From an uncultured Candidatus Saccharibacteria bacterium (GTDB taxonomy: Bacteria; Patescibacteriota; Minisyncoccia; Phycocordibacterales; JACOZG01): DNA of 64,000 bases. The stretch is from contig CAYUVV010000001.1 in assembly GCA_964448295.1 (NCBI GenBank), positions 144,065 to 208,064 of the forward strand. Direction: 5' to 3'. Shown in pieces: positions 17,686 to 56,870 of this stretch. The notes beneath the pieces are model-generated. The model was not told the DNA's origin, did not search any database, and was given only the letters and a program-made list of their open reading frames with translations. Each line of letters starts with the position of its first letter. The first letter of the stretch is position 1. Both the position numbers and the translations under genes were made by a program.

Positions 17686-17762
17686 GGGCCTGTAGCTCAA
17701 TCGGCTAGAGCGCCACATTTGCAATGTGGAGGTTACCGGTTCGATTCCGGTCAGGTCCACCA
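17686..17762 (+). tRNA. tRNA-Ala (anticodon TGC), CCA encoded
   Basis: Cloverleaf folded by hand: acceptor GGGCCTG/CAGGTCC with G3:U70 Ala identity pair, D-stem GCTC/GAGC, anticodon loop TTTGCAA, T-arm ACCGG-TTCGATT-CCGGT, discriminator A + CCA. Confidence 0.9.
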
Positions 17763-17780: not shown

Positions 17781-17865
17781 GCTCGGACGCGGCGGAATTC
17801 CTCCCACACCCCCCCCTTCCGCCGCGCCCTCGCTTGGACGGACGGAATTTTTGGCGGCGGCATTG
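17781..17865 (+). repeat. Structured ~85-bp repeat, copy 1 (20 bp after tRNA-Ala, about 80 bp upstream of the C-protein gene)
   Basis: GCTCGGACGCGGCGGAATTCC-TCCCACAC-C8-TTCCGCCGCG-CCCTCGCTTGGACGGACGGAATTTTTGGCGGCGG; 10-bp perfect inverted repeat CGCGGCGGAA/TTCCGCCGCG. Confidence 0.8.
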
Positions 17866-17946
17866 AGAAAAGAATGGAAAGTTGATATGATTGAAGTGCA
17901 AGTCATACGACCATTATATCACTTTCCATACATTATATAGTATAAT

Positions 17947-18147
17947 ATGTCCACAATAGGCAGAAACATCAAACGGCTTCGGCAAGAAAAAGGGCTTTCG
18001 CAAGATAAGCTATCTAAACTTGCCGATTTATCGCTCAATACTGTTGTTAAGATAGAATTGGACGACAGCCCTAACCCCACTATTGAGACAGTTCAAAGAA
18101 TTGCGAAAGCCCTTGAAGTGTCGGTTGATGACCTTTTGAAGAAATGA
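17947..18147 (+). CDS. XRE-family HTH protein, probable R-M controller (C) protein; likely leaderless
   Basis: 66-aa HTH_XRE; ATG directly abuts TATAAT; 4 bp upstream of the MTase. Confidence 0.8.
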   Translation: MSTIGRNIKRLRQEKGLSQDKLSKLADLSLNTVVKIELDDSPNPTIETVQRIAKALEVSVDDLLKK

Positions 18148-18150
18148 TTT

Positions 18151-18930
18151 ATGACAAAGACAGATTTTAAAAAGAAATATCTAAACAAGATCGTCTGCGG
18201 CTCTGCTGTTGATGTGATGAAAAATTTGCCGGACGGCTCGGTTGATTTGATTATCACTTCACCGCCTTACAATCTCAAAAATTCAACCGGGAACGGAATG
18301 AAAGACGGACGTGGTGGAAAATGGGCAAACGCCGCTCTACAAAAAGGCTATTCGCACCACAACGACTGTATGCCGCATGATGAGTATGTGAAGTGGCAAA
18401 GAGATTGCTTGACGGAAATGTTGCGGCTTATACCGGAAGACGGTGCGATTTTCTATAACCACAAATGGCGCGTGCAGGGCGGTTTATTGCAAGACCGCCA
18501 AGACATTGTGAGTGGTTTTCCCGTCCGGCAAATTATTATTTGGAAGCGGAAAGGCGGCCTCAATTTCAACCCCGGATATTTTTTGCCGACTTATGAAGTT
18601 ATTTACCTCATCGCCAAACCAAAATTTAGCTTGAAAACAAAGGCCAACGCTCACGGCGATGTTTGGGAATTTACGCAAGAAATGAACAACGACCATCCAG
18701 CCGCCTTTCCGGTTAATTTGATTGATAGAATTGTCGGATCAACTGACGCAAAAATTGTTTTGGACCCGTTTATGGGCTCCGGCACAACGGCGATTTCTGC
18801 GCTAAACTTTGGACGAGATTACATCGGTATTGATATTTCACCAGAGTATTGCGAAATGGCCGAAAACCGCATAAAACAACATCAATCACAATCTAAACTT
18901 TTTCAACCAGTTTATGAAAAACACGCCTAA
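18151..18930 (+). CDS. DNA methyltransferase, beta-class amino-MTase (N4-cytosine or N6-adenine)
   Basis: Motif IV DLIITSPPYN precedes motif I FMGSGTT (beta permutation); the SPPY form is common in m4C MTases. Confidence 0.85.
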   Translation: MTKTDFKKKYLNKIVCGSAVDVMKNLPDGSVDLIITSPPYNLKNSTGNGMKDGRGGKWANAALQKGYSHHNDCMPHDEYVKWQRDCLTEMLRLIPEDGAIFYNHKWRVQGGLLQDRQDIVSGFPVRQIIIWKRKGGLNFNPGYFLPTYEVIYLIAKPKFSLKTKANAHGDVWEFTQEMNNDHPAAFPVNLIDRIVGSTDAKIVLDPFMGSGTTAISALNFGRDYIGIDISPEYCEMAENRIKQHQSQSKLFQPVYEKHA

Positions 18931-19711
18931 AACCTACACAAAGCCAGAACTTATCGCCAAGCTGAAAGAAATTTCGGCAATGGGTTTTGTACCGAACGCG
19001 CGGCGAGGCAACGCTGGCGGTATCGGTAATACTCTTGAAGATTTACTCGGTATCAAAGAGAACAATTTGCCAATTCCAAACGCCGCAGAATGGGAATTGA
19101 AAGCGCAACGCCTCAATTCCACTTCACTCACAACTCTTTTCCATATTGAGCCCTCGCCGCGCGCAATTCGTTTCGTGCCGCAAGTTCTGCTCCCAAAATA
19201 CGGGTGGGCACACCAAGAGGACGGCAAGAAATATCCGAAAGGAGAGATGAGTTTCCGACAAACAATCCACGGGCAATCACGAAGCGACCGAGGTTTCAAG
19301 GTCGTTATTGACCGGAAGGAGAAAAAGATTTTGATTTCGTTTGACGCAAAAAGTGTGGACTTGCGGCACAAGACATGGGTTGAGTCAGTAAAAAAGCGTG
19401 TTGGCCTTAGCGAGCTTGACCCACAGCCATATTGGGGATTTGACGATTTGGAACACAAGGCCGGAACAAAATTACTAAACGCTTTTTATGTTCAGGCCGA
19501 AGTGAAGATCGTAAGGAAGAAGGAATATTATCACTACACGAAAGTGATGATGTTACAGAAATTCAGTTTTGAAGGATTTTTGAAAGCGTTGGATGAAGGA
19601 AAAATCCTTGTGGATTTTGATGCTCGCACCGGACACAACCACGGCACGAAATTCCGCATGAGGCAGGATGCTTTGCCGATGTTGTATGAAAAACAAACGA
19701 TAATCATTTAG
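18914..19711 (+). CDS. Type II restriction endonuclease, MvaI/BcnI (MutH-like) family candidate
   Basis: Start overlaps the MTase stop by 17 bp. MutH/BcnI-like signature NAGGIGNTLEDLLGI...EWELK...LTTLFH and C-terminal GHNHG...LY segment. Confidence 0.5.
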   Translation: MKNTPKTYTKPELIAKLKEISAMGFVPNARRGNAGGIGNTLEDLLGIKENNLPIPNAAEWELKAQRLNSTSLTTLFHIEPSPRAIRFVPQVLLPKYGWAHQEDGKKYPKGEMSFRQTIHGQSRSDRGFKVVIDRKEKKILISFDAKSVDLRHKTWVESVKKRVGLSELDPQPYWGFDDLEHKAGTKLLNAFYVQAEVKIVRKKEYYHYTKVMMLQKFSFEGFLKALDEGKILVDFDARTGHNHGTKFRMRQDALPMLYEKQTIII

Positions 19712-19715
19712 TAAT

Positions 19716-21866
19716 ATGGCAACTCGTGGAGAAATGTTTAATCGAGTAATTAAAAAGCGAAAAGACGCTGAAGATTTAATCTTGTGCATGGAAGATGCTG
19801 TCAATAAGCTTTTACAAAAAGAAACCTCGTCACAAAATCCGGGAATACTACTTGGAAAAATTCAAAGCGGAAAGACGCGGGCATTTATTGGAATAATGGC
19901 CCTTTCGTTTGATAACGGATATGACGCGGCCATTATTCTCACAAAAGGCACAAAGGCATTACTAAAACAAACTGTGCAACGCATGGAGGGAGATTTCGCA
20001 GATTTTATACAGGAAGACAAGGCAGACGTTTTTGACGTTATGGTGATGCCAGACAATCTTACTGCGTATGAAAGAAATAAAAAGCTCATTATCATCGTGA
20101 AAAAAGAGGTGAATAATATGAAAAGAATTTTAGAGAAATTAGCCAGCGTATACCCCGATCTTCGCGAGAAAAAAATTCTGATAGTTGATGATGAGGCAGA
20201 TTACGCGAGTATCAGCTTCCGCAAGCACGCAGAGGCAATAGAAGTTGGCCGCATATCATCTCAAATTGATGAGTTGAGAAGCATTGTTAAAAAAGTAGAT
20301 TATCTTCAAGTTACAGCAACTCCATATTCGCTTTATCTTCAGCCAAGCATGGTCGAGGATAGAGTTGAATTCTTGCCAAAACGGCCAGCATTCACGGTTT
20401 TACTACCAAAGCACAGTGATTATATCGGTGGCGAATTCTATTTTAATGAAAGTGAGGATGAAAACTCCATTGCGCACTTTATTTTCGAGGAAGTTCCCGC
20501 TGATGAAAGAGATGTGCTGAAAGAACCTGATGCACGCCGATTAAAATTGGATGATGTTGTTTCGTCTAGTAAAATAAATGTTTTGAGAAAAGCGGTCGTA
20601 AATTTTTTGGTCGGCGCGATCATTAGACGCAAACAACAAATAGATAGCGGAGAACCCCAGCAGAAATATGCCTTTATTGCACATAGCGAAATTCACCGGA
20701 ATTCGCATGGATGGCAACTTGAAATAATCCGTGCCTTAATAGCCGAGCTAGCGAAAATAGCAAAGGATAGTCCACAGTCCTTAGATTCTCTCATTGAAGA
20801 ATCATATGAGGATATGAAAAAGTCCGTAGGTAAAATTGATTCCCTAAAAATGCCGGCAAAAGAAGAAGTGAGGGGTGGAGTAATAAAATCTCTACTGGAA
20901 GAGCACATAATGATAACAACGGTAAATTCTGATAAAGAAGTGGAGGAATTGTTGGATGATAAAGGACAGCTAAAATTGCGTAACCCAATGAATATTTTTA
21001 TTGGCGGACAGATTTTAGATCGCGGTGTTACAGTAAATAACTTAATTGGATTTTATTATGGTAGAAAACCAAAAAGATTTCAGCAGGACACAGTTTTACA
21101 ACACGCAAGGATGTATGGCGCGCGGCCACGTACCGATTTGGCCGTAACTCGTTTCTATACAACGAGGGACATTTATGAGGTTATGAGACGTATTCATGAG
21201 TTCGATTCCGCACTAAGGGAAGCGTTTGAAAAGGGAGACCATTCCAACGGAGTGTATTTCATACGAAAAGACGTTACTGGACGACTCGTCCCTTGTTCTC
21301 CAAACAAGCTTTTGCTTTCCTCTCTCGCAACATTACGACCGCATAAAAGATTGCTCCCAATTGGCTTTCAAACAGGATACAAAACAAATATCGGAGATGT
21401 TGTTGGACAAGTTGATTCAATTATTGACGAGTGGTTTTCCGGAAAAGATGAAAATGAGCCGGTACTTGTTGAGCTTAGTGATTGCATGAAAGTCGTTGAT
21501 TTAATTTCCAAGACACTTGAGCTCGACGAGTCCTATTCGTTCAACTGGAAAACTTTCAAAGCAAGTTTAGAACACCTATCTTTGCACTCTCGAAATAATT
21601 CAGAAACCGGGAAAGTATGGATTTTGATAAGGAAATCAAGAAATACAAAAAGGATTAGAGAGGGTGGGCGTATTGAAAATGCTCCGGATACTCCACAACG
21701 TGAAGGTGTTATTGCTAAGAGAGTTTCGATTGATACCCCTGTGCTTATGTTACTCCGCCAAAATGGCACAAAAGATGATGGGTGGAGAGATGCAGAGTTT
21801 TGGTGGCCTGTGCTGATGACACCACAAAATACAGAGGTTACTGTTTTTGCCGAGGAAACAGTATAA
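19716..21866 (+). CDS. SF2-like P-loop ATPase, Z1-domain-like protein (fourth gene of R-M operon)
   Basis: Walker A GKIQSGKT, Walker B ILIVDDEAD, 716 aa; starts 4 bp after the REase stop. Confidence 0.45.
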   Translation: MATRGEMFNRVIKKRKDAEDLILCMEDAVNKLLQKETSSQNPGILLGKIQSGKTRAFIGIMALSFDNGYDAAIILTKGTKALLKQTVQRMEGDFADFIQEDKADVFDVMVMPDNLTAYERNKKLIIIVKKEVNNMKRILEKLASVYPDLREKKILIVDDEADYASISFRKHAEAIEVGRISSQIDELRSIVKKVDYLQVTATPYSLYLQPSMVEDRVEFLPKRPAFTVLLPKHSDYIGGEFYFNESEDENSIAHFIFEEVPADERDVLKEPDARRLKLDDVVSSSKINVLRKAVVNFLVGAIIRRKQQIDSGEPQQKYAFIAHSEIHRNSHGWQLEIIRALIAELAKIAKDSPQSLDSLIEESYEDMKKSVGKIDSLKMPAKEEVRGGVIKSLLEEHIMITTVNSDKEVEELLDDKGQLKLRNPMNIFIGGQILDRGVTVNNLIGFYYGRKPKRFQQDTVLQHARMYGARPRTDLAVTRFYTTRDIYEVMRRIHEFDSALREAFEKGDHSNGVYFIRKDVTGRLVPCSPNKLLLSSLATLRPHKRLLPIGFQTGYKTNIGDVVGQVDSIIDEWFSGKDENEPVLVELSDCMKVVDLISKTLELDESYSFNWKTFKASLEHLSLHSRNNSETGKVWILIRKSRNTKRIREGGRIENAPDTPQREGVIAKRVSIDTPVLMLLRQNGTKDDGWRDAEFWWPVLMTPQNTEVTVFAEETV

Positions 21867-21871
21867 TATAG

Positions 21872-21958
21872 CAATGCCGCCGCCAAAAATTCCGTCCGTC
21901 CAAGCGAGGGCGTGGCGGAAGGAGGGGGTTGGGGGGAGGAATTCCGCGCCGTCCGAGC
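21872..21958 (-). repeat. Structured ~85-bp repeat, copy 2 (inverted relative to copy 1; 6 bp after the stop of the Z1-like gene)
   Basis: Reverse complement aligns with copy 1 over its whole length, with poly-C tract variation. Confidence 0.8.
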
Positions 21959-22186
21959 ACCGCATTGAACCCGCCACATTGCCTGAATACTTGGAGGGCA
22001 GAACCCCGAAAGAAAACACCCTTTCCCTTTTCAGAAAAAATTTCATCCCAGCCAAATCAGAAAAGCAAGGAGTGTTTTTTTCGGGGTTGCCGCCGAGTCC
22101 GCGAGGCGGTGTCAGCGGGTTAGTCAGTATTTTGTTGGAAGTAAGTCCGAACTTTTTGGTATAATGACCATAATCACGATAATTAA

Positions 22187-22747
22187 ATGAAGCCGCAGAA
22201 GCGTTGCGCTTGGGTAACGACTGATCCGCTCTATATTAAATATCACGACGAGGAGTGGGGTGTGCCAACGCGGGATGATCGAAAAATGTTTGAATTTTTA
22301 GTGCTGGAGAGCGCGCAGGCTGGCCTCTCCTGGCTGACGGTTTTACGCAAGCGGGAGAATTATCGTCGGGCTTTTGCTGATTTTGACCCGCGGGCGGTGG
22401 CCCAGTTTGGCGCGCGCGATGTCGCGCGTTTGCTTAAAAATCCCGGCCTGATTCGTAATCGGCAAAAAATTACGGCCGCGATTAACAACGCTCGCCATTT
22501 TTTAGAAGTGCAAAAAGAGTTTGGCTCGTTTTCTGAATATCTCTGGAATTTTGTGGGCAATCGGATTGAACGACATACTGTTCGCCATCTGCAGGATTAT
22601 CCGAAATTTACACCCGCAGCCGAAATGTTGGCCAAAGATTTAAAAAAACGCAGTTTTCGATTTCTTGGTCCCACCATCATTTACGCCCATATGCAGGCCG
22701 TGGGGATGGTCAATGATCATATGATTGGTTGCTTTCGTCGGCTATAA
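22187..22747 (+). CDS. tag: DNA-3-methyladenine glycosylase I
   Basis: Near-colinear with E. coli Tag: YHDEEWGVP...LSWLTVLRKRENYR...VNDHMIGC. Confidence 0.9.
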   Translation: MKPQKRCAWVTTDPLYIKYHDEEWGVPTRDDRKMFEFLVLESAQAGLSWLTVLRKRENYRRAFADFDPRAVAQFGARDVARLLKNPGLIRNRQKITAAINNARHFLEVQKEFGSFSEYLWNFVGNRIERHTVRHLQDYPKFTPAAEMLAKDLKKRSFRFLGPTIIYAHMQAVGMVNDHMIGCFRRL

Positions 22748-24563
22748 TTGTCTTGTGGAAGGTCCAAAATGGCACCGTCTGAGCGTGGCGGAAACGGCGC
22801 GACGCTTGCAAACTGATGTCTTGCGCGGGCTCGACGACCAAGCGGTTCTGGAGCGTAGACGTCTGACGTCGGGCATTCACGCGGCAAATTTTTTCTCGAC
22901 GACTGTTCAGATTTTGCGGGCAGAACTTGTTCGACCACCACTAATTTCTCTTGGTCTGGGTGTTTTGTTTGCCGCTTTTCTCCGCCATTGGCCGGCGTTT
23001 TTTGTTGGTTTGGTTCTGTTTGGCGCGGTTTTCGGCCTCGGTTGGTGGGGGAGAGTGGTTTGGTCGAAGATTCGGCAAATATCGAAGCGCGAACGGCAGG
23101 CTTCAGTCACCGTTATTCGTGGAGGCGAACGGCGGCAAATTCCTCCGGGCGAGTTGGTTGCGGGCGATCTTTTATTGCTTTCAGCTGGAGAAGTGGCGCC
23201 CGGTGAGGCACGAATTGTCTCGGCTCATTCTTTGAAGATATTTTTTGATGGTCGAACGGAACAAGCGCTTGTTTCGGCTGTGTCGACGTCGTCAGAGCCG
23301 CCGCGGAATATGTTGATGACGGGGGCGGCTGTGATTTCTGGCTCTGGTCAAGCGTTGATGGTGGCAGAAGCGGTGCGTGTTTGCCCGCCTGGTGTTGGTA
23401 ACGAGGGTTTGATTACTCCTCGAGGGCGACGTTACGCCGAACTGGCGATTTTGGCAAACGGCCTCTCTGTCTTGCTCTTGATTATTCTTTTTTTAGTTGG
23501 TTGGGGGACGGTTTGGTTGGTCCCGTTGGTGTTGGTTTTTCCGGCGGCGCTAGTACCCGCCTGGACGGCGATTCTCGTCTATTTGGCTAAGGTCATTACC
23601 CGGGAGGGCGGTTTGATAAACCAGTTGGCTGTGATTGAAAATTTAAGCCGCGTCCAAACATTAATTTTGGGGCGTGGTGGTTTGCAGGCCAATGAAGAAT
23701 TGTCGGTTGATTTGATTGTTCCGCGGAGCGATGCGGTGGGTGATCGAGAAGATGTGCTCTGGATGGGAATTATGACCGCAGAAGCTTGGTCGGACTCGCC
23801 CTTTACGACGTGGAGCAGGGTGGCTACGGTCCACGGCCGGCCAGTGGAGCGCGCCCTTATTCGTGCTGGTCTCGTAATCAAAATGTCGCCGGAGCGAATT
23901 TTTCCTCAAACTCCGCGTGTAGATTTTTTACCGTTTGATTCCGAACGTGGTTTTGCCGCCTCTCTCCACTGGGACCGCGCGGCCGAACGCCACTTTGTTT
24001 ATTTTGCCGGTACCCCAGAATTGCTTTTGGCGCGGGCTAAGTTTTTTTATCGGTCCGGTGCGCTAAGCCCGATGACGGTTGCAGATCAGGATTTTTTCTT
24101 GGCCGCAATCAAGCAGGGAACCGAGCGCGGGGTGAACTTTCTGGCCACGGGATTCGCGGTCGGCCGCGGCCCACGTTTATCAGCCGCTGAACCAATTAGT
24201 GACGAGTTGGTGTTTGGGGGCTTGATTGGCTTAACCGGAACGATGGTCGGAGAGAAAACTACGGTATCGGCTCCGGTTGCCGGAACAAACGAATTAAAAA
24301 TGATTGTAGTTAGCTCCCGTCTAGCCGACAAACTTTCAGCTCTAGTGGATTGTCGTCAGAAAAAAGAATCAGCGGCGATCATCGGCGCTCTTCCTCCCGA
24401 CTTATTATTGTTTAATCAAGCGGATTTGAGTTTGGCACCCGCCGATGCGCCCCCCGCCCTGCGGCAGGCGGCGCATCTTGTTTTACCCGGCCGCCTAAAC
24501 GCGTCTGATGTTTTGAACCGGTGGCACCTGTTAACGGCGCGATACCTACAAAAATTTCTCTAA
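22725..24563 (+). CDS. P-type ATPase-like protein, degenerate (lacks DKTGT and TGES)
   Basis: Cation_ATPase_N-like start, 2 TM, actuator-like VIRGGERRQIPPGELVAGDLLLL, 2 TM. Where ICSDKTGTLT is expected it reads LILGRGGLQ. No C-terminal TM bundle. Confidence 0.5.
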   Translation: MVAFVGYNCLVEGPKWHRLSVAETARRLQTDVLRGLDDQAVLERRRLTSGIHAANFFSTTVQILRAELVRPPLISLGLGVLFAAFLRHWPAFFVGLVLFGAVFGLGWWGRVVWSKIRQISKRERQASVTVIRGGERRQIPPGELVAGDLLLLSAGEVAPGEARIVSAHSLKIFFDGRTEQALVSAVSTSSEPPRNMLMTGAAVISGSGQALMVAEAVRVCPPGVGNEGLITPRGRRYAELAILANGLSVLLLIILFLVGWGTVWLVPLVLVFPAALVPAWTAILVYLAKVITREGGLINQLAVIENLSRVQTLILGRGGLQANEELSVDLIVPRSDAVGDREDVLWMGIMTAEAWSDSPFTTWSRVATVHGRPVERALIRAGLVIKMSPERIFPQTPRVDFLPFDSERGFAASLHWDRAAERHFVYFAGTPELLLARAKFFYRSGALSPMTVADQDFFLAAIKQGTERGVNFLATGFAVGRGPRLSAAEPISDELVFGGLIGLTGTMVGEKTTVSAPVAGTNELKMIVVSSRLADKLSALVDCRQKKESAAIIGALPPDLLLFNQADLSLAPADAPPALRQAAHLVLPGRLNASDVLNRWHLLTARYLQKFL

Positions 24564-52963: not shown

Positions 52964-53233
52964 AAAATTTCTCAGATAATTTTGACCCCTCTTGGTCCTT
53001 CGATACTTTTCTAGACTGCTGTCCCTCCTGAATGAAATCCGAACTTTTTACCAAACGAACCCTGACGAATGAAGCCGCCCCGCCGCCGCTCGCTGACGCT
53101 CGCCACCGAGCAAAACACTCTTTACATTTTCTGATTTGCGCGCGCCCCCGAAAAATTTTTCCAATTAAGGAAAAGAGTATTTTGCTCGGCTCTGCTCTGA
53201 ACGAGCAGGCGGCGGGGCTGGCCTCTATTTTTT

Positions 53234-53316
53234 GCTCGGGCGCGGCGGAATTCCCCCCACACCCTCCTTCCGCCGTGTTCTTGCGGGAACGGACGGAATT
53301 TTTGGCGGCGGTTATT
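53234..53316 (+). repeat. Structured ~85-bp repeat, copy 3 (overlaps stop of helicase gene)
   Basis: GCTCGGGCGCGGCGGAATTCCCCCCACACCCTCCTTCCGCCGTG...GGACGGAATTTTTGGCGGCGG. Confidence 0.8.
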
Positions 53317-56300
53317 TTGATTTTAGCATCTCCTTTATCTCCTGAACACACTGCTCCAAATCATTTTGGAGTTGATACACCCAAAATCGTTTGACTTGCC
53401 ATCCATGCATGATGAGATGCTGATCTCGTTTCAAATCCGAGAGCAAGCGACCTCCGTCAATGTCGCGATGCCACATCTCGCCGTCAATCTCAATATCAAT
53501 CGGGATTTCAGAATCAAGAACGGCAAGGTCAAGACGATATTGGTACAACGGATATTGCGAGATGGTTCTGATACCTTCCCGCGCGAGGGCGTCATACAAA
53601 ACTTCCTCCCACGGCGACTCAAATTTTCCTCCGCTTTTATTTTTATTTTCCGGTTCCAACTCCTCGACATACTTCACGAAATCCGAAAGATGCGAGATGC
53701 CGGATTGAGCGCAAGCAACCCTGTCGCCGACAATATGCAATTCCGCCCTCGCACGGGTAATCGCGACATTGAATAGATTTACCGTATTTCCCAAAAATCC
53801 TAACGAGCGTTGCTGGATTTTACGCGATACAACCGGAGAGAAAATCATAATGTCGCGTTGGTCGCCTTGATATTTATGCGCGGTATCAACTGTAAAATCC
53901 AGTTTTCGCAACTGCGCCGCGTCTATCTTTTGCTCTACCAAATCTCTGATTTTGTTCGCTTGCTCTCGGAAGGGCGTAACAACGCCGAGCGATACGGAGT
54001 AGTCGTCGCCGTGGGCGAAAATTCTTTTGATAATTTCTTCAATCAACGCAACAATCGCTTTCGCCTCGTCCAAATTGTATGCGCTTCCAGCAGATGGCCG
54101 AATAACCTCGCCGACGACATCGTGCCAAATGAGCGCGTCTGGATGTCCGGCGCCGCGCAACCTACGATAATCCGTCCAAACGCTCAATTTCCCGCCATAA
54201 AACTTTTTGTTGGAGAAACCGATAATTTCCGCGCGGCTCCTGTAGTGTTCGAGTAAGTGAACGAATTTTGCACCCGTTCCTACAACGCTTCGCGCAAGCT
54301 CAAAAAGAGAGTTTATGCTGTAAAGAAAGCGTTGGTCGTCGGTCGAGGTTAGGCCAATCTGCCGTTGCAACTGTTGATCGTCCGCGCGATGCAAAAGAGA
54401 GATGTGCGTGAGCTGATTTGGGTCGCCCACAATCACGGCTCGCTTCGCGCGATAAAGTAGCGGAATTGCGGACGCGATGTCGCATTGAGACGCTTCGTCA
54501 ATAATCACGACATCAACGGCTCCTGCGCTCAACGGGAGTGCGTGACGGACGGATAGATTTGTAACGGCCATCGCCGGAAACGCCCTTACTACGCTTTTGA
54601 ACATTCGCTTGCGCTCATTTCTCAACTCCTCCGCAAGTTCGCCTCCTGTTACATCACCCTCTAATCGGCGCACGATACTCACATAGTCCGCAATATCGCG
54701 CCGTTCCTTAGGGCCAAGCGACTTGAGACGACGCTTCATCAACGCATCAACATATATGACGCTAATATCTATCGCGCGTTCTTTGCTTTTTGTGATTCGC
54801 TCCCGCAAAACTTCTACGCGCGCTTCGTTCTCATTCTCTCGCACAATTCCTAGAAGTTCAGATTGATTATCAATCCACTTTTTCAAGGCGCGGCAAATTG
54901 TCAAAAGCTCTCGGCAGTTATGAACGGAATTGAGCGAGATATTGATGCCTTCGACTGGCGCAAGCAGAAGTAATGATTTTGCTGTTTCCAAAACTCGTTT
55001 TTCCAGCGTAGAACCGAAAAGCGCAAGAACGCGCGAAATAAAACCGGGTCCCTCGTCAATTTCCTTTACTAAGCGACCCAACGAAACAAGAGTGTTATAA
55101 AATTCCTGTTTCCCTTCGATTTTTTGATACGAGTTGAGGTTGCGAGAAATTGACGAAGGCAATTCCGCTCTGACAGATTCAAGCGCGGCATCAAGGCGAC
55201 TTATGCGATTCCTGCGATCAAGAATGCGGAATAGTGATTGTTGCGCCTCTTTTTCTTCCGAACGCACTACCTCAAGCTCTTTTTTGTATTCGCCAATTTC
55301 TCGCTCTAGCGATTGGCTGTTGTAGCTTGAGGCGCGTTCAATCGCGGACAAAAGTGCTTCCGCAAATTCAATCTCGCGTTCCTTCTGCCCATATTTGAGA
55401 ATGACCGGCTCGGATTGAAGTCGCAATAATCTTTCAATGACGACATCAACCGCTTTGTGGTTTTTACTTCCGAATAAAACGCTTTCGTTATGAAGTAGCG
55501 CGTTGGCAATAATATTAAGAACGATTTGCGACTTTCCGGTTCCGGGCGGTCCGGTAATGACACTAACCGTATTGTTGAATGCACTTTTGACCGCGCCTCT
55601 TTGTTCATCGTTCAGTCCGGTTATTTCCAGCAATCCATCGCCGTTGTCCTCTTTGACTTCTGCGTTTCTATCAAGAATTACGCGCCATACATCATTCGGA
55701 GCGGTGGTATCTCGTAATTCGCTCAATTCTTGCTCTAGCCCACCAGTGTATTTTGAATCCGCGCTCCGAAAAATAACGCCAAGAGGCAAAACACCGCCCT
55801 CCGCTTTTAATTCTGTTGTTTTGCCGCCTAGAATATCTTTTGAGAAAGGAACCTCTTGCGGCAAAAGCTCGGCGAACGCACCCAAAATAGTTTTGAGATT
55901 TTGCCCTCTGCTTTTCTCATCGTCCCATGATTCCAAAACCGCTTCGGCGATTTGCTTTCTTTCCTCAACGCTCGTCAGTAAACTTTTATCTGTGAGAAAA
56001 GCAGAGTTGATTCTCGGTCTATCAGATTGCAAAACGAAAGCGTGTCCGGTTTCTGTTTGAACGAGGTCTATACCGAAAATCAGGATGGGCTGGATTATTT
56101 GACCCGACCATCCTCGTCGCGATTGTTCAATATGTTTAATGTGGCAAGGAAAGCCATAGAAATACGAAAGTGGACTGCGGCTCCATCGGGGACCGCTGAT
56201 GAACGCTTGGATTTTTTCATTTTGACCCTCAAATTCCAGTTTTTCCTTGCCGGACGCAATCCACTCTTTTTCCATTGCAGGCACCTGCAAAAACTCCACT

Positions 56301-56500
56301 CCATCTTTTGACGAGTAGAGTGTGATTTCTCCGGAGTTCTCAACGGAAATGCATGAGCCGTAATATTTGAGGAGTTTTTGCCAGCGTGAGGATGTAGGGT
56401 CGGTGTGAACCACCGGAGTCTTGTTTTCTGTTTTTCGGGCGGTTGCCGTTCGCCTATATCCGCCTCGACCTCTGTATTTGTTGCGATAGTAGGTTGCCAT
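53312..56500 (-). CDS. SF1 (Upf1/DNA2-like) helicase fused to C-terminal DUF559/Vsr-like endonuclease domain; N-terminal about 300-aa DUF4011-like region
   Basis: Walker A ITGPPGTGKSQ, Walker B VVIIDEASQ, motif VI region TAHKYQGDQRD, C-terminal YRLDLAV...IEIDGEMWH...D...K nuclease-like core. Confidence 0.8.
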   Translation of the reverse strand: MATYYRNKYRGRGGYRRTATARKTENKTPVVHTDPTSSRWQKLLKYYGSCISVENSGEITLYSSKDGVEFLQVPAMEKEWIASGKEKLEFEGQNEKIQAFISGPRWSRSPLSYFYGFPCHIKHIEQSRRGWSGQIIQPILIFGIDLVQTETGHAFVLQSDRPRINSAFLTDKSLLTSVEERKQIAEAVLESWDDEKSRGQNLKTILGAFAELLPQEVPFSKDILGGKTTELKAEGGVLPLGVIFRSADSKYTGGLEQELSELRDTTAPNDVWRVILDRNAEVKEDNGDGLLEITGLNDEQRGAVKSAFNNTVSVITGPPGTGKSQIVLNIIANALLHNESVLFGSKNHKAVDVVIERLLRLQSEPVILKYGQKEREIEFAEALLSAIERASSYNSQSLEREIGEYKKELEVVRSEEKEAQQSLFRILDRRNRISRLDAALESVRAELPSSISRNLNSYQKIEGKQEFYNTLVSLGRLVKEIDEGPGFISRVLALFGSTLEKRVLETAKSLLLLAPVEGINISLNSVHNCRELLTICRALKKWIDNQSELLGIVRENENEARVEVLRERITKSKERAIDISVIYVDALMKRRLKSLGPKERRDIADYVSIVRRLEGDVTGGELAEELRNERKRMFKSVVRAFPAMAVTNLSVRHALPLSAGAVDVVIIDEASQCDIASAIPLLYRAKRAVIVGDPNQLTHISLLHRADDQQLQRQIGLTSTDDQRFLYSINSLFELARSVVGTGAKFVHLLEHYRSRAEIIGFSNKKFYGGKLSVWTDYRRLRGAGHPDALIWHDVVGEVIRPSAGSAYNLDEAKAIVALIEEIIKRIFAHGDDYSVSLGVVTPFREQANKIRDLVEQKIDAAQLRKLDFTVDTAHKYQGDQRDIMIFSPVVSRKIQQRSLGFLGNTVNLFNVAITRARAELHIVGDRVACAQSGISHLSDFVKYVEELEPENKNKSGGKFESPWEEVLYDALAREGIRTISQYPLYQYRLDLAVLDSEIPIDIEIDGEMWHRDIDGGRLLSDLKRDQHLIMHGWQVKRFWVYQLQNDLEQCVQEIKEMLKSK

Positions 56501-56797: not shown

Positions 56798-56870
56798 CAC
56801 GGCGGAATTCCCCCCACACCCCCCCCCCTTCCGCCGCGCCCTCGCTTGGGCTGGCGAATTTTTTGGCGGT
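56798..56870 (+). repeat. Structured ~85-bp repeat, copy 4 (about 85 bp upstream of the HTH gene start)
   Basis: CACGGCGGAATTCCCCCCACAC-C10-TTCCGCCGCGCCCTCGCTTGGGCTGGCGAATTTTTTGGCGG; 5' end diverged. Confidence 0.75.

Follow-up and report, generated by a model that had tools for sequence, protein, structure and literature searches.

A relative of the CglI/NgoAVII H subunit behind an MvaI/BcnI-family restriction–modification cassette in a Candidatus Saccharibacteria genome

In the restriction enzymes CglI, NgoAVII and BceSIV, an H subunit is the obligate partner of a nuclease with PLD and B3 domains, the DNA is modified by a C5-methyltransferase, and the characterized H proteins are inactive without the R subunit (PMC4267653; PMC5861437). 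Here we describe a relative of this subunit, named H, encoded at positions 19716–21866 (forward strand) of a 64,000-nucleotide stretch of DNA (the window) from an uncultured Candidatus Saccharibacteria bacterium (assembly GCA_964448295.1, contig CAYUVV010000001.1, positions 144,065–208,064). It is the last gene of a set that also encodes a controller-like protein (C), a DNA methyltransferase (M) and an endonuclease of the MvaI/BcnI family (R). MvaI and BcnI are ATP-independent monomers, and the window combines a two-gene restriction–modification (R-M) type with a helicase-like third gene. On balance, the genomic context leads us to lean towards H being a facultative, portable accessory motor for R-M systems and not an obligate subunit.

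The H protein and its operon

Four independent lines agree that H is clearly related to the H subunit of the CglI/NgoAVII restriction enzymes, a DNA translocase driven by ATP. The PADLOC model Helicase_II matches it over its full length (E=2.7e-61). Residues 31–705 are collinear with residues 28–621 of N.NgoAVII (24% identity, E=2e-39), a protein whose identity was established through its neighbour R.NgoAVII, equivalent to 4rct (E=4e-240), and H is also collinear with a plasmid-encoded H whose partner is a PLD protein (E=1e-41). Structure searches return only the motor and the CglI C-domain. PDB sequences searched with H, with a 44-sequence H profile and with a C-domain profile gave no match, and the C-domain is tied to CglI solely by fold comparison and the PADLOC model. 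H is not a new kind of protein, because a family, a domain and a PADLOC/REBASE-derived model already exist. An identity as MzaC was considered and rejected: NCBIfam NF041933 scores 60.3 bits against an equivalog cutoff of 1500 bits, and H is surrounded by C, M, R, ddl and tag, not by MutL and AIPR genes.

The 716-residue open reading frame (ORF), with an ATG start, is real, as had been proposed in a preliminary description made from the sequence by eye, and the two Walker motifs claimed there were located at residues 47–54 (GKIQSGKT) and 154–162 (ILIVDDEAD). They belong to the N-core RecA domain (residues 26–204; 19791–20327, forward strand), delimited by Pfam ResIII, motif positions and invariant columns, which contains the Walker A variant QSGKT (50–54), DDEAD (158–162) and motif III, TAT (200–202). 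QSGKT and DDEAD, the H-type ATPase motifs as defined in PMC5861437, are invariant across 44 H homologues. The middle region (residues 290–507; 20583–21236, forward strand) scores 81.7 bits against a profile cutoff of 25; it contains the invariant residues H323 and H331, after which come two predicted helices (328–351 and 353–371). R436 and Q462-H-A-R465, all invariant in the homologue alignment, align to GGNVI(S/G)RG and QHSR of the plasmid H and N.NgoAVII. The preliminary description had found neither nuclease nor helicase C-terminal motifs; the absence of a nuclease holds, with no nuclease or other effector domain detected in Pfam, PADLOC, NCBIfam or fold searches. The C-terminal domain (residues 508–716; 21237–21863, forward strand) has the fold of the CglI H-subunit C-domain, and its conserved positions include R646, W690, F695, W697 and P698.

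The catalytic motifs are conserved and the fold resembles those of dsDNA translocases, from which H is predicted to be an ATP-dependent translocase. The ratio of nonsynonymous to synonymous substitution rates (dN/dS) is 0.03–0.07 for H, which indicates strong purifying selection and therefore a functional gene; the value for R is similar (0.07). A Rosetta-stone test was made with longer relatives that bear the C-domain. Their N- and C-terminal extensions have no Pfam match and, with one weak exception, no homology to neighbour genes in the sampled loci; about 11 of the C-terminal extensions form one unknown family.

The genes C, M, R and H lie tightly packed on the same strand, and the earlier proposal of an ATPase in an R-M operon is borne out. 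M (18151–18930, forward strand) is a beta-class DNA amino-methyltransferase (Pfam N6_N4_Mtase, E=3.3e-38; PADLOC MTase_II PDLC03305, E=1.6e-122) with the motifs SPPY at residues 37–40 and FMGSG at 207–211. The SPPY motif, together with the MvaI-type partner, suggests that it is probably an N4-cytosine methyltransferase of the M.MvaI type. R (18914–19711, forward strand) is a 265-residue Type II endonuclease that matches the whole MvaI_BcnI profile (Pfam, E=4.3e-67, profile positions 1–227 of 227), and its residues 23–254 align to R.MvaI (2oa9, crystal-structure sequence). H starts 4 nucleotides (nt) past the R stop codon. The first gene, C (17947–18147, forward strand), encodes a C-like 66-residue helix-turn-helix protein (XRE/HTH_3; Pfam HTH_3, E=8.7e-15).

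At the PD...ExK site, R reads PNAAEWELK, compared with aPDfhDiEiK in MvaI and lGDlgEfElK in BcnI. The asparagine (N56) replaces the first aspartate, which we take to be a catalytic, metal-binding residue in MvaI and BcnI. The substitution was considered as a signature of coupling to H, that is, of a nuclease needing activation, and this was rejected because 119 of 120 R homologues carry it irrespective of H. As for the recognition sequence, CCWGG shows the strongest depletion among the tested pentamers across the whole window, with an observed/expected ratio of 0.45 (order-3 Markov model), compared with 0.78 for CCSGG, 0.66 for GGWCC and 0.71 for GGSCC, and no CCWGG site occurs in the 4-kb cassette. 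This depletion lends weak support to an MvaI-like specificity.

Cassettes with and without H

Related cassettes were compared in a metagenomic, R-centred sample (loci L085–L169), in which 75 loci were informative for H and 72 for M and C. M lies beside R in all 72, and a controller-like helix-turn-helix gene was found in 16 of them. The R homologues are 86–96% identical and come from many lineages of the Candidate Phyla Radiation (CPR). The proteins of the M–R cassette are 83–97% identical across many of these lineages and occupy many different chromosomal sites, and the cassette is therefore frequently transferred horizontally. H has been recruited to it repeatedly, at least three times independently: at least three H lineages, with no more than 55% mutual identity, share the same position and orientation behind one M–R cassette, and the R proteins joined to the different lineages are 96% identical to each other. 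The H start lies 3–5 nt after the R stop in all H-bearing copies, and H overlaps R in L018. At a fourth locus, H is paired with a distant, LlaMI-type member of the nuclease superfamily of R.

Beyond these cassettes, a collection covering 185,579 species yielded 391 confirmed H loci, so that H occurs in ~0.2% of species genomes, and the closest relatives of the window protein come from Parcubacteria and other CPR bacteria. The nearest relatives of each H lineage accompany other R-M types. Those at 74–77% identity are the last gene of Type III Res–Mod–H operons (PADLOC MTase_III, E ~1e-205), and outside the CPR, H adjoins Type III mod genes or overlaps with them, by 10 nt in L004. Among the 118 operonic partners of 80 genomic H homologues, the most frequent Pfam families are N6_N4_Mtase (16), ResIII (11) and MvaI_BcnI (5), and Type I HsdM and HsdS occur three times each. 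Two further neighbourhoods were seen in the set with 71–72% identity to H. In L001 (2741–8435) the neighbours are a 377-residue protein with a C-terminal PLD domain, an N6_N4 methyltransferase and a 95-residue GIY-YIG ORF that overlaps the end of H, and in L173 (1531–4606) a PADLOC PDC-S18 candidate (E=1.7e-113) stops 1 nt before H.

As most copies of the cassette have no H, the M–R pair is probably self-sufficient, and H, acting as an accessory motor, would add an ATP-dependent step to restriction. This step could be long-range communication between sites, the removal of bound proteins or the processing of DNA after cleavage, and H might be coupled to the nuclease through direct contact or only through the DNA.

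Several observations weigh against such a role. H lies behind R in only 7 of the 75 informative loci, the other 68 (~91%) being without it, and it is likewise missing from all four long contigs inspected, one of which carries the cassette behind ddl, the arrangement seen in the window. Identity between R proteins from H-bearing and H-less copies is 96–99% (up to 98.8%), and a search for co-adaptation of R and H found no H-specific R clade, the last few residues of R being the sole discriminating columns; R is therefore not adapted to H. In the H-less cassettes the slot 3′ of R is often filled by PycTM (five loci), AAA_15/OLD-like, PIN_8, GmrSD_N, TIR_2, Vsr, SLFN_AlbA_2, C5-methyltransferase or other genes, and such a variety of unrelated defence genes is the picture expected of a defence-island hot spot. 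Of 84 H-centred genomic loci whose neighbourhoods were counted by crude ORF calling, only 36 carry an ORF with methyltransferase motifs inside 5 kb, and at 32 the strand of H has no neighbouring ORF up to 200 bp away. R-M genes are absent from the vicinity of many genomic homologues, such as those in Halobacillus, and the Type III partners of H already bring their own motor.

The absence of H from most of the otherwise near-identical cassettes, the lack of co-adaptation in R, the other genes that fill the slot, the homologues without a nearby R-M gene and the spread of H neighbours over Type I, II and III systems and the PDC-S18 candidate would also suit an autonomous defence or DNA-processing module. 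Such a module would sit in a hot spot 3′ of a mobile M–R cassette and work without the neighbouring nuclease, perhaps with a partner encoded at another locus or with host nucleases. We regard this as possible, although rather unlikely, since neither a nuclease nor any other effector domain was detected in H, its sole characterized relatives are inactive without the R subunit (PMC4267653; PMC5861437), at least three recruitments placed it in the same position and orientation behind R, and it overlaps or abuts Type III mod in non-CPR genomes, as in L004.

An obligate role like that in CglI, with R and H assembled in an R2H2-type complex and with the MvaI-like R dependent on ATP hydrolysis by H for cleavage, is improbable. 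The homology of H to H.CglI and N.NgoAVII extends over three domains, only 4 nt separate the R and H genes, and N56 could mean that the nuclease is attenuated. However, the asparagine variant is independent of H, and H-linked and H-less R proteins are nearly the same. In addition, M is kept in every cassette although ~91% of them have M and R without H, which implies that R is active alone, as the ATP-independent MvaI and BcnI are.

H could also be the decaying, non-functional remnant of a former CglI-type system. H is often lost, and the copy in L122 (4810–6996) has a premature in-frame TAA at codon 179, which could be due to a pseudogene, a sequencing error or recoding. This explanation is very doubtful, as the window encodes an intact H in which every catalytic motif is present, all H domains are conserved and the dN/dS values of H and R are low. 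The least credible is a housekeeping or repair helicase lying beside the R-M system by chance, as the chromosomal neighbours of the cassette (uvrC, ddl, tag and rmuC, all with repair or housekeeping functions) might suggest: H matches no housekeeping helicase family, with no profile match of this kind accompanied by conserved synteny unrelated to R-M, which the preliminary description had named as its refutation, it is rare among species genomes, its GC content is 0.40 (0.40–0.45 for the C–M–R–H set) versus 0.55 for the upstream ddl, and it lies inside a repeat-bounded mobile cassette that also occurs, with an identical H, on contigs carrying nothing else.

Boundary repeats and surroundings of the cassette

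The C–M–R–H set is bracketed exactly by an inverted pair of copies of a GC-rich repeat of ~85 nt. The left copy spans positions 17781–17865 and the right copy, which begins 6 nt past the H stop codon, 21872–21958. They were identified as inverted-repeat arms (17803–17865/21872–21934, 63 nt, 94%; 17781–17815/21924–21958) and by blastn, which gives 92% identity over 87 nt. The repeat contains an internal hairpin (GCGGCGGAA...TTCCGCCGC) and has no match in an Rfam search. It is found at the outer edges of defence-gene cassettes in the present genome as well as in further genomes of the CPR (L006, 9147–9224; L122, 7006–7080; L144, 6943–7033; L152, 6955–7025; L093, 5498–5541; L139, 2908–2983). It lies directly behind H in L006, L122, L144/145 and L152, which represent two H lineages, and behind the alternative third gene in H-less cassettes. 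A search for paired inverted copies around the cassette gave none in L005, L006, L018, L019, L122, L144 or L152, a single copy 3′ of H being common. The repeat may be a recombination or mobilization site and, because it lies outside H, H moves with the cassette. Two contigs of ~4 kb, obtained in independent runs, carry C–M–R–H alone with an identical H, as expected from assemblies breaking at the repeats.

Two further copies of the repeat in the window, detected by blastn at 53233–53311 and 56802–56869, bracket a gene on the reverse strand (53312–56500), one of them abutting its stop codon. This gene encodes a 1062-residue superfamily 1 helicase (AAA_11/AAA_12) fused to an MTES_1575/DUF559 nuclease domain, and the whole looks like a second repeat-bounded, defence-type cassette.

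The C–M–R–H set sits between a tRNA-Ala gene and tag. The tRNA-Ala(TGC) gene (17686–17762, forward strand; ARAGORN, and Rfam tRNA at 73 bits) forms the left chromosomal flank. A promoter-like site 5′ of C (TTGAGA-17-TATGAT, with a TG element; 17863–17891, forward strand) matches 10 of 12 consensus positions, as a pattern match only. Between the cassette and tag there is a long imperfect hairpin (21964–22130, forward strand), predicted by RNA folding. The segment 21867–22140 folds with −112.3 kcal/mol (z=−4.6), a stability not reached by any of 200 shuffled sequences. The hairpin is 76–87% conserved beside the cassettes in L090 and L104–L109, and could represent either a terminator or a portion of the repeat element. 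A 105-residue ORF (21847–22164) that overlaps the end of H and the hairpin has neither protein homologues nor a family match and is unlikely to be a gene. The weak matches that its translation gives elsewhere correspond to the DNA repeat and the hairpin, and the ORF has no similarity to the 95-residue GIY-YIG gene of L001, of which it was considered a counterpart. Further downstream, a 612-residue ORF with a TTG start (22725–24563, forward strand) gives weak partial matches to Cation_ATPase_N, E1-E2_ATPase and Cation_ATPase, and may encode a truncated or divergent P-type ATPase.

Comparison with known systems

The pairing of a CglI-type motor with MvaI/BcnI-family and Type III systems appears to be undescribed in the searchable literature, and the same appears true of its optional status and of its repeated, independent recruitment. 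The cassette constitutes a natural experiment, in which near-identical M–R units occur with H, without H and with three H lineages, and which makes the proposed role directly testable. Such a compact, repeat-bounded unit is also of interest for the spread of defence genes between CPR bacteria, whose genomes are small.

With the classical MvaI/BcnI systems, which are of Type IIP, the cassette shares the type of both M and R. These systems consist of two genes and are ATP-independent, whereas the cassette adds the helicase-like H, and the R subfamily reads PN..ExK in place of PD..ExK. No MvaI/BcnI system with a helicase-like third gene is described in the literature searched. In the Type I (HsdR), ISP (LlaBIII) and III (Res) enzymes, the nuclease is fused to a superfamily 2 motor in one polypeptide, whereas H is a motor without a nuclease domain.

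There are several differences from CglI and NgoAVII. The nuclease of these enzymes is a PLD+B3 protein and their methyltransferase is of the C5 class, whereas R is a PD-(D/E)XK enzyme of the MvaI/BcnI family and M a beta-class amino-methyltransferase with SPPY; no R subunit that combines a PLD nuclease with a B3-like DNA-binding domain lies next to H. H itself is ~85 residues longer than the H proteins of CglI and NgoAVII. Its relatives are also found beside Type III and Type I systems or alone. Finally, the 68 of 75 cassettes that have no H, with M retained, argue indirectly against a strict dependence of the nuclease on H and ATP: CglI and NgoAVII need both subunits, whereas H is probably dispensable for the cassette.
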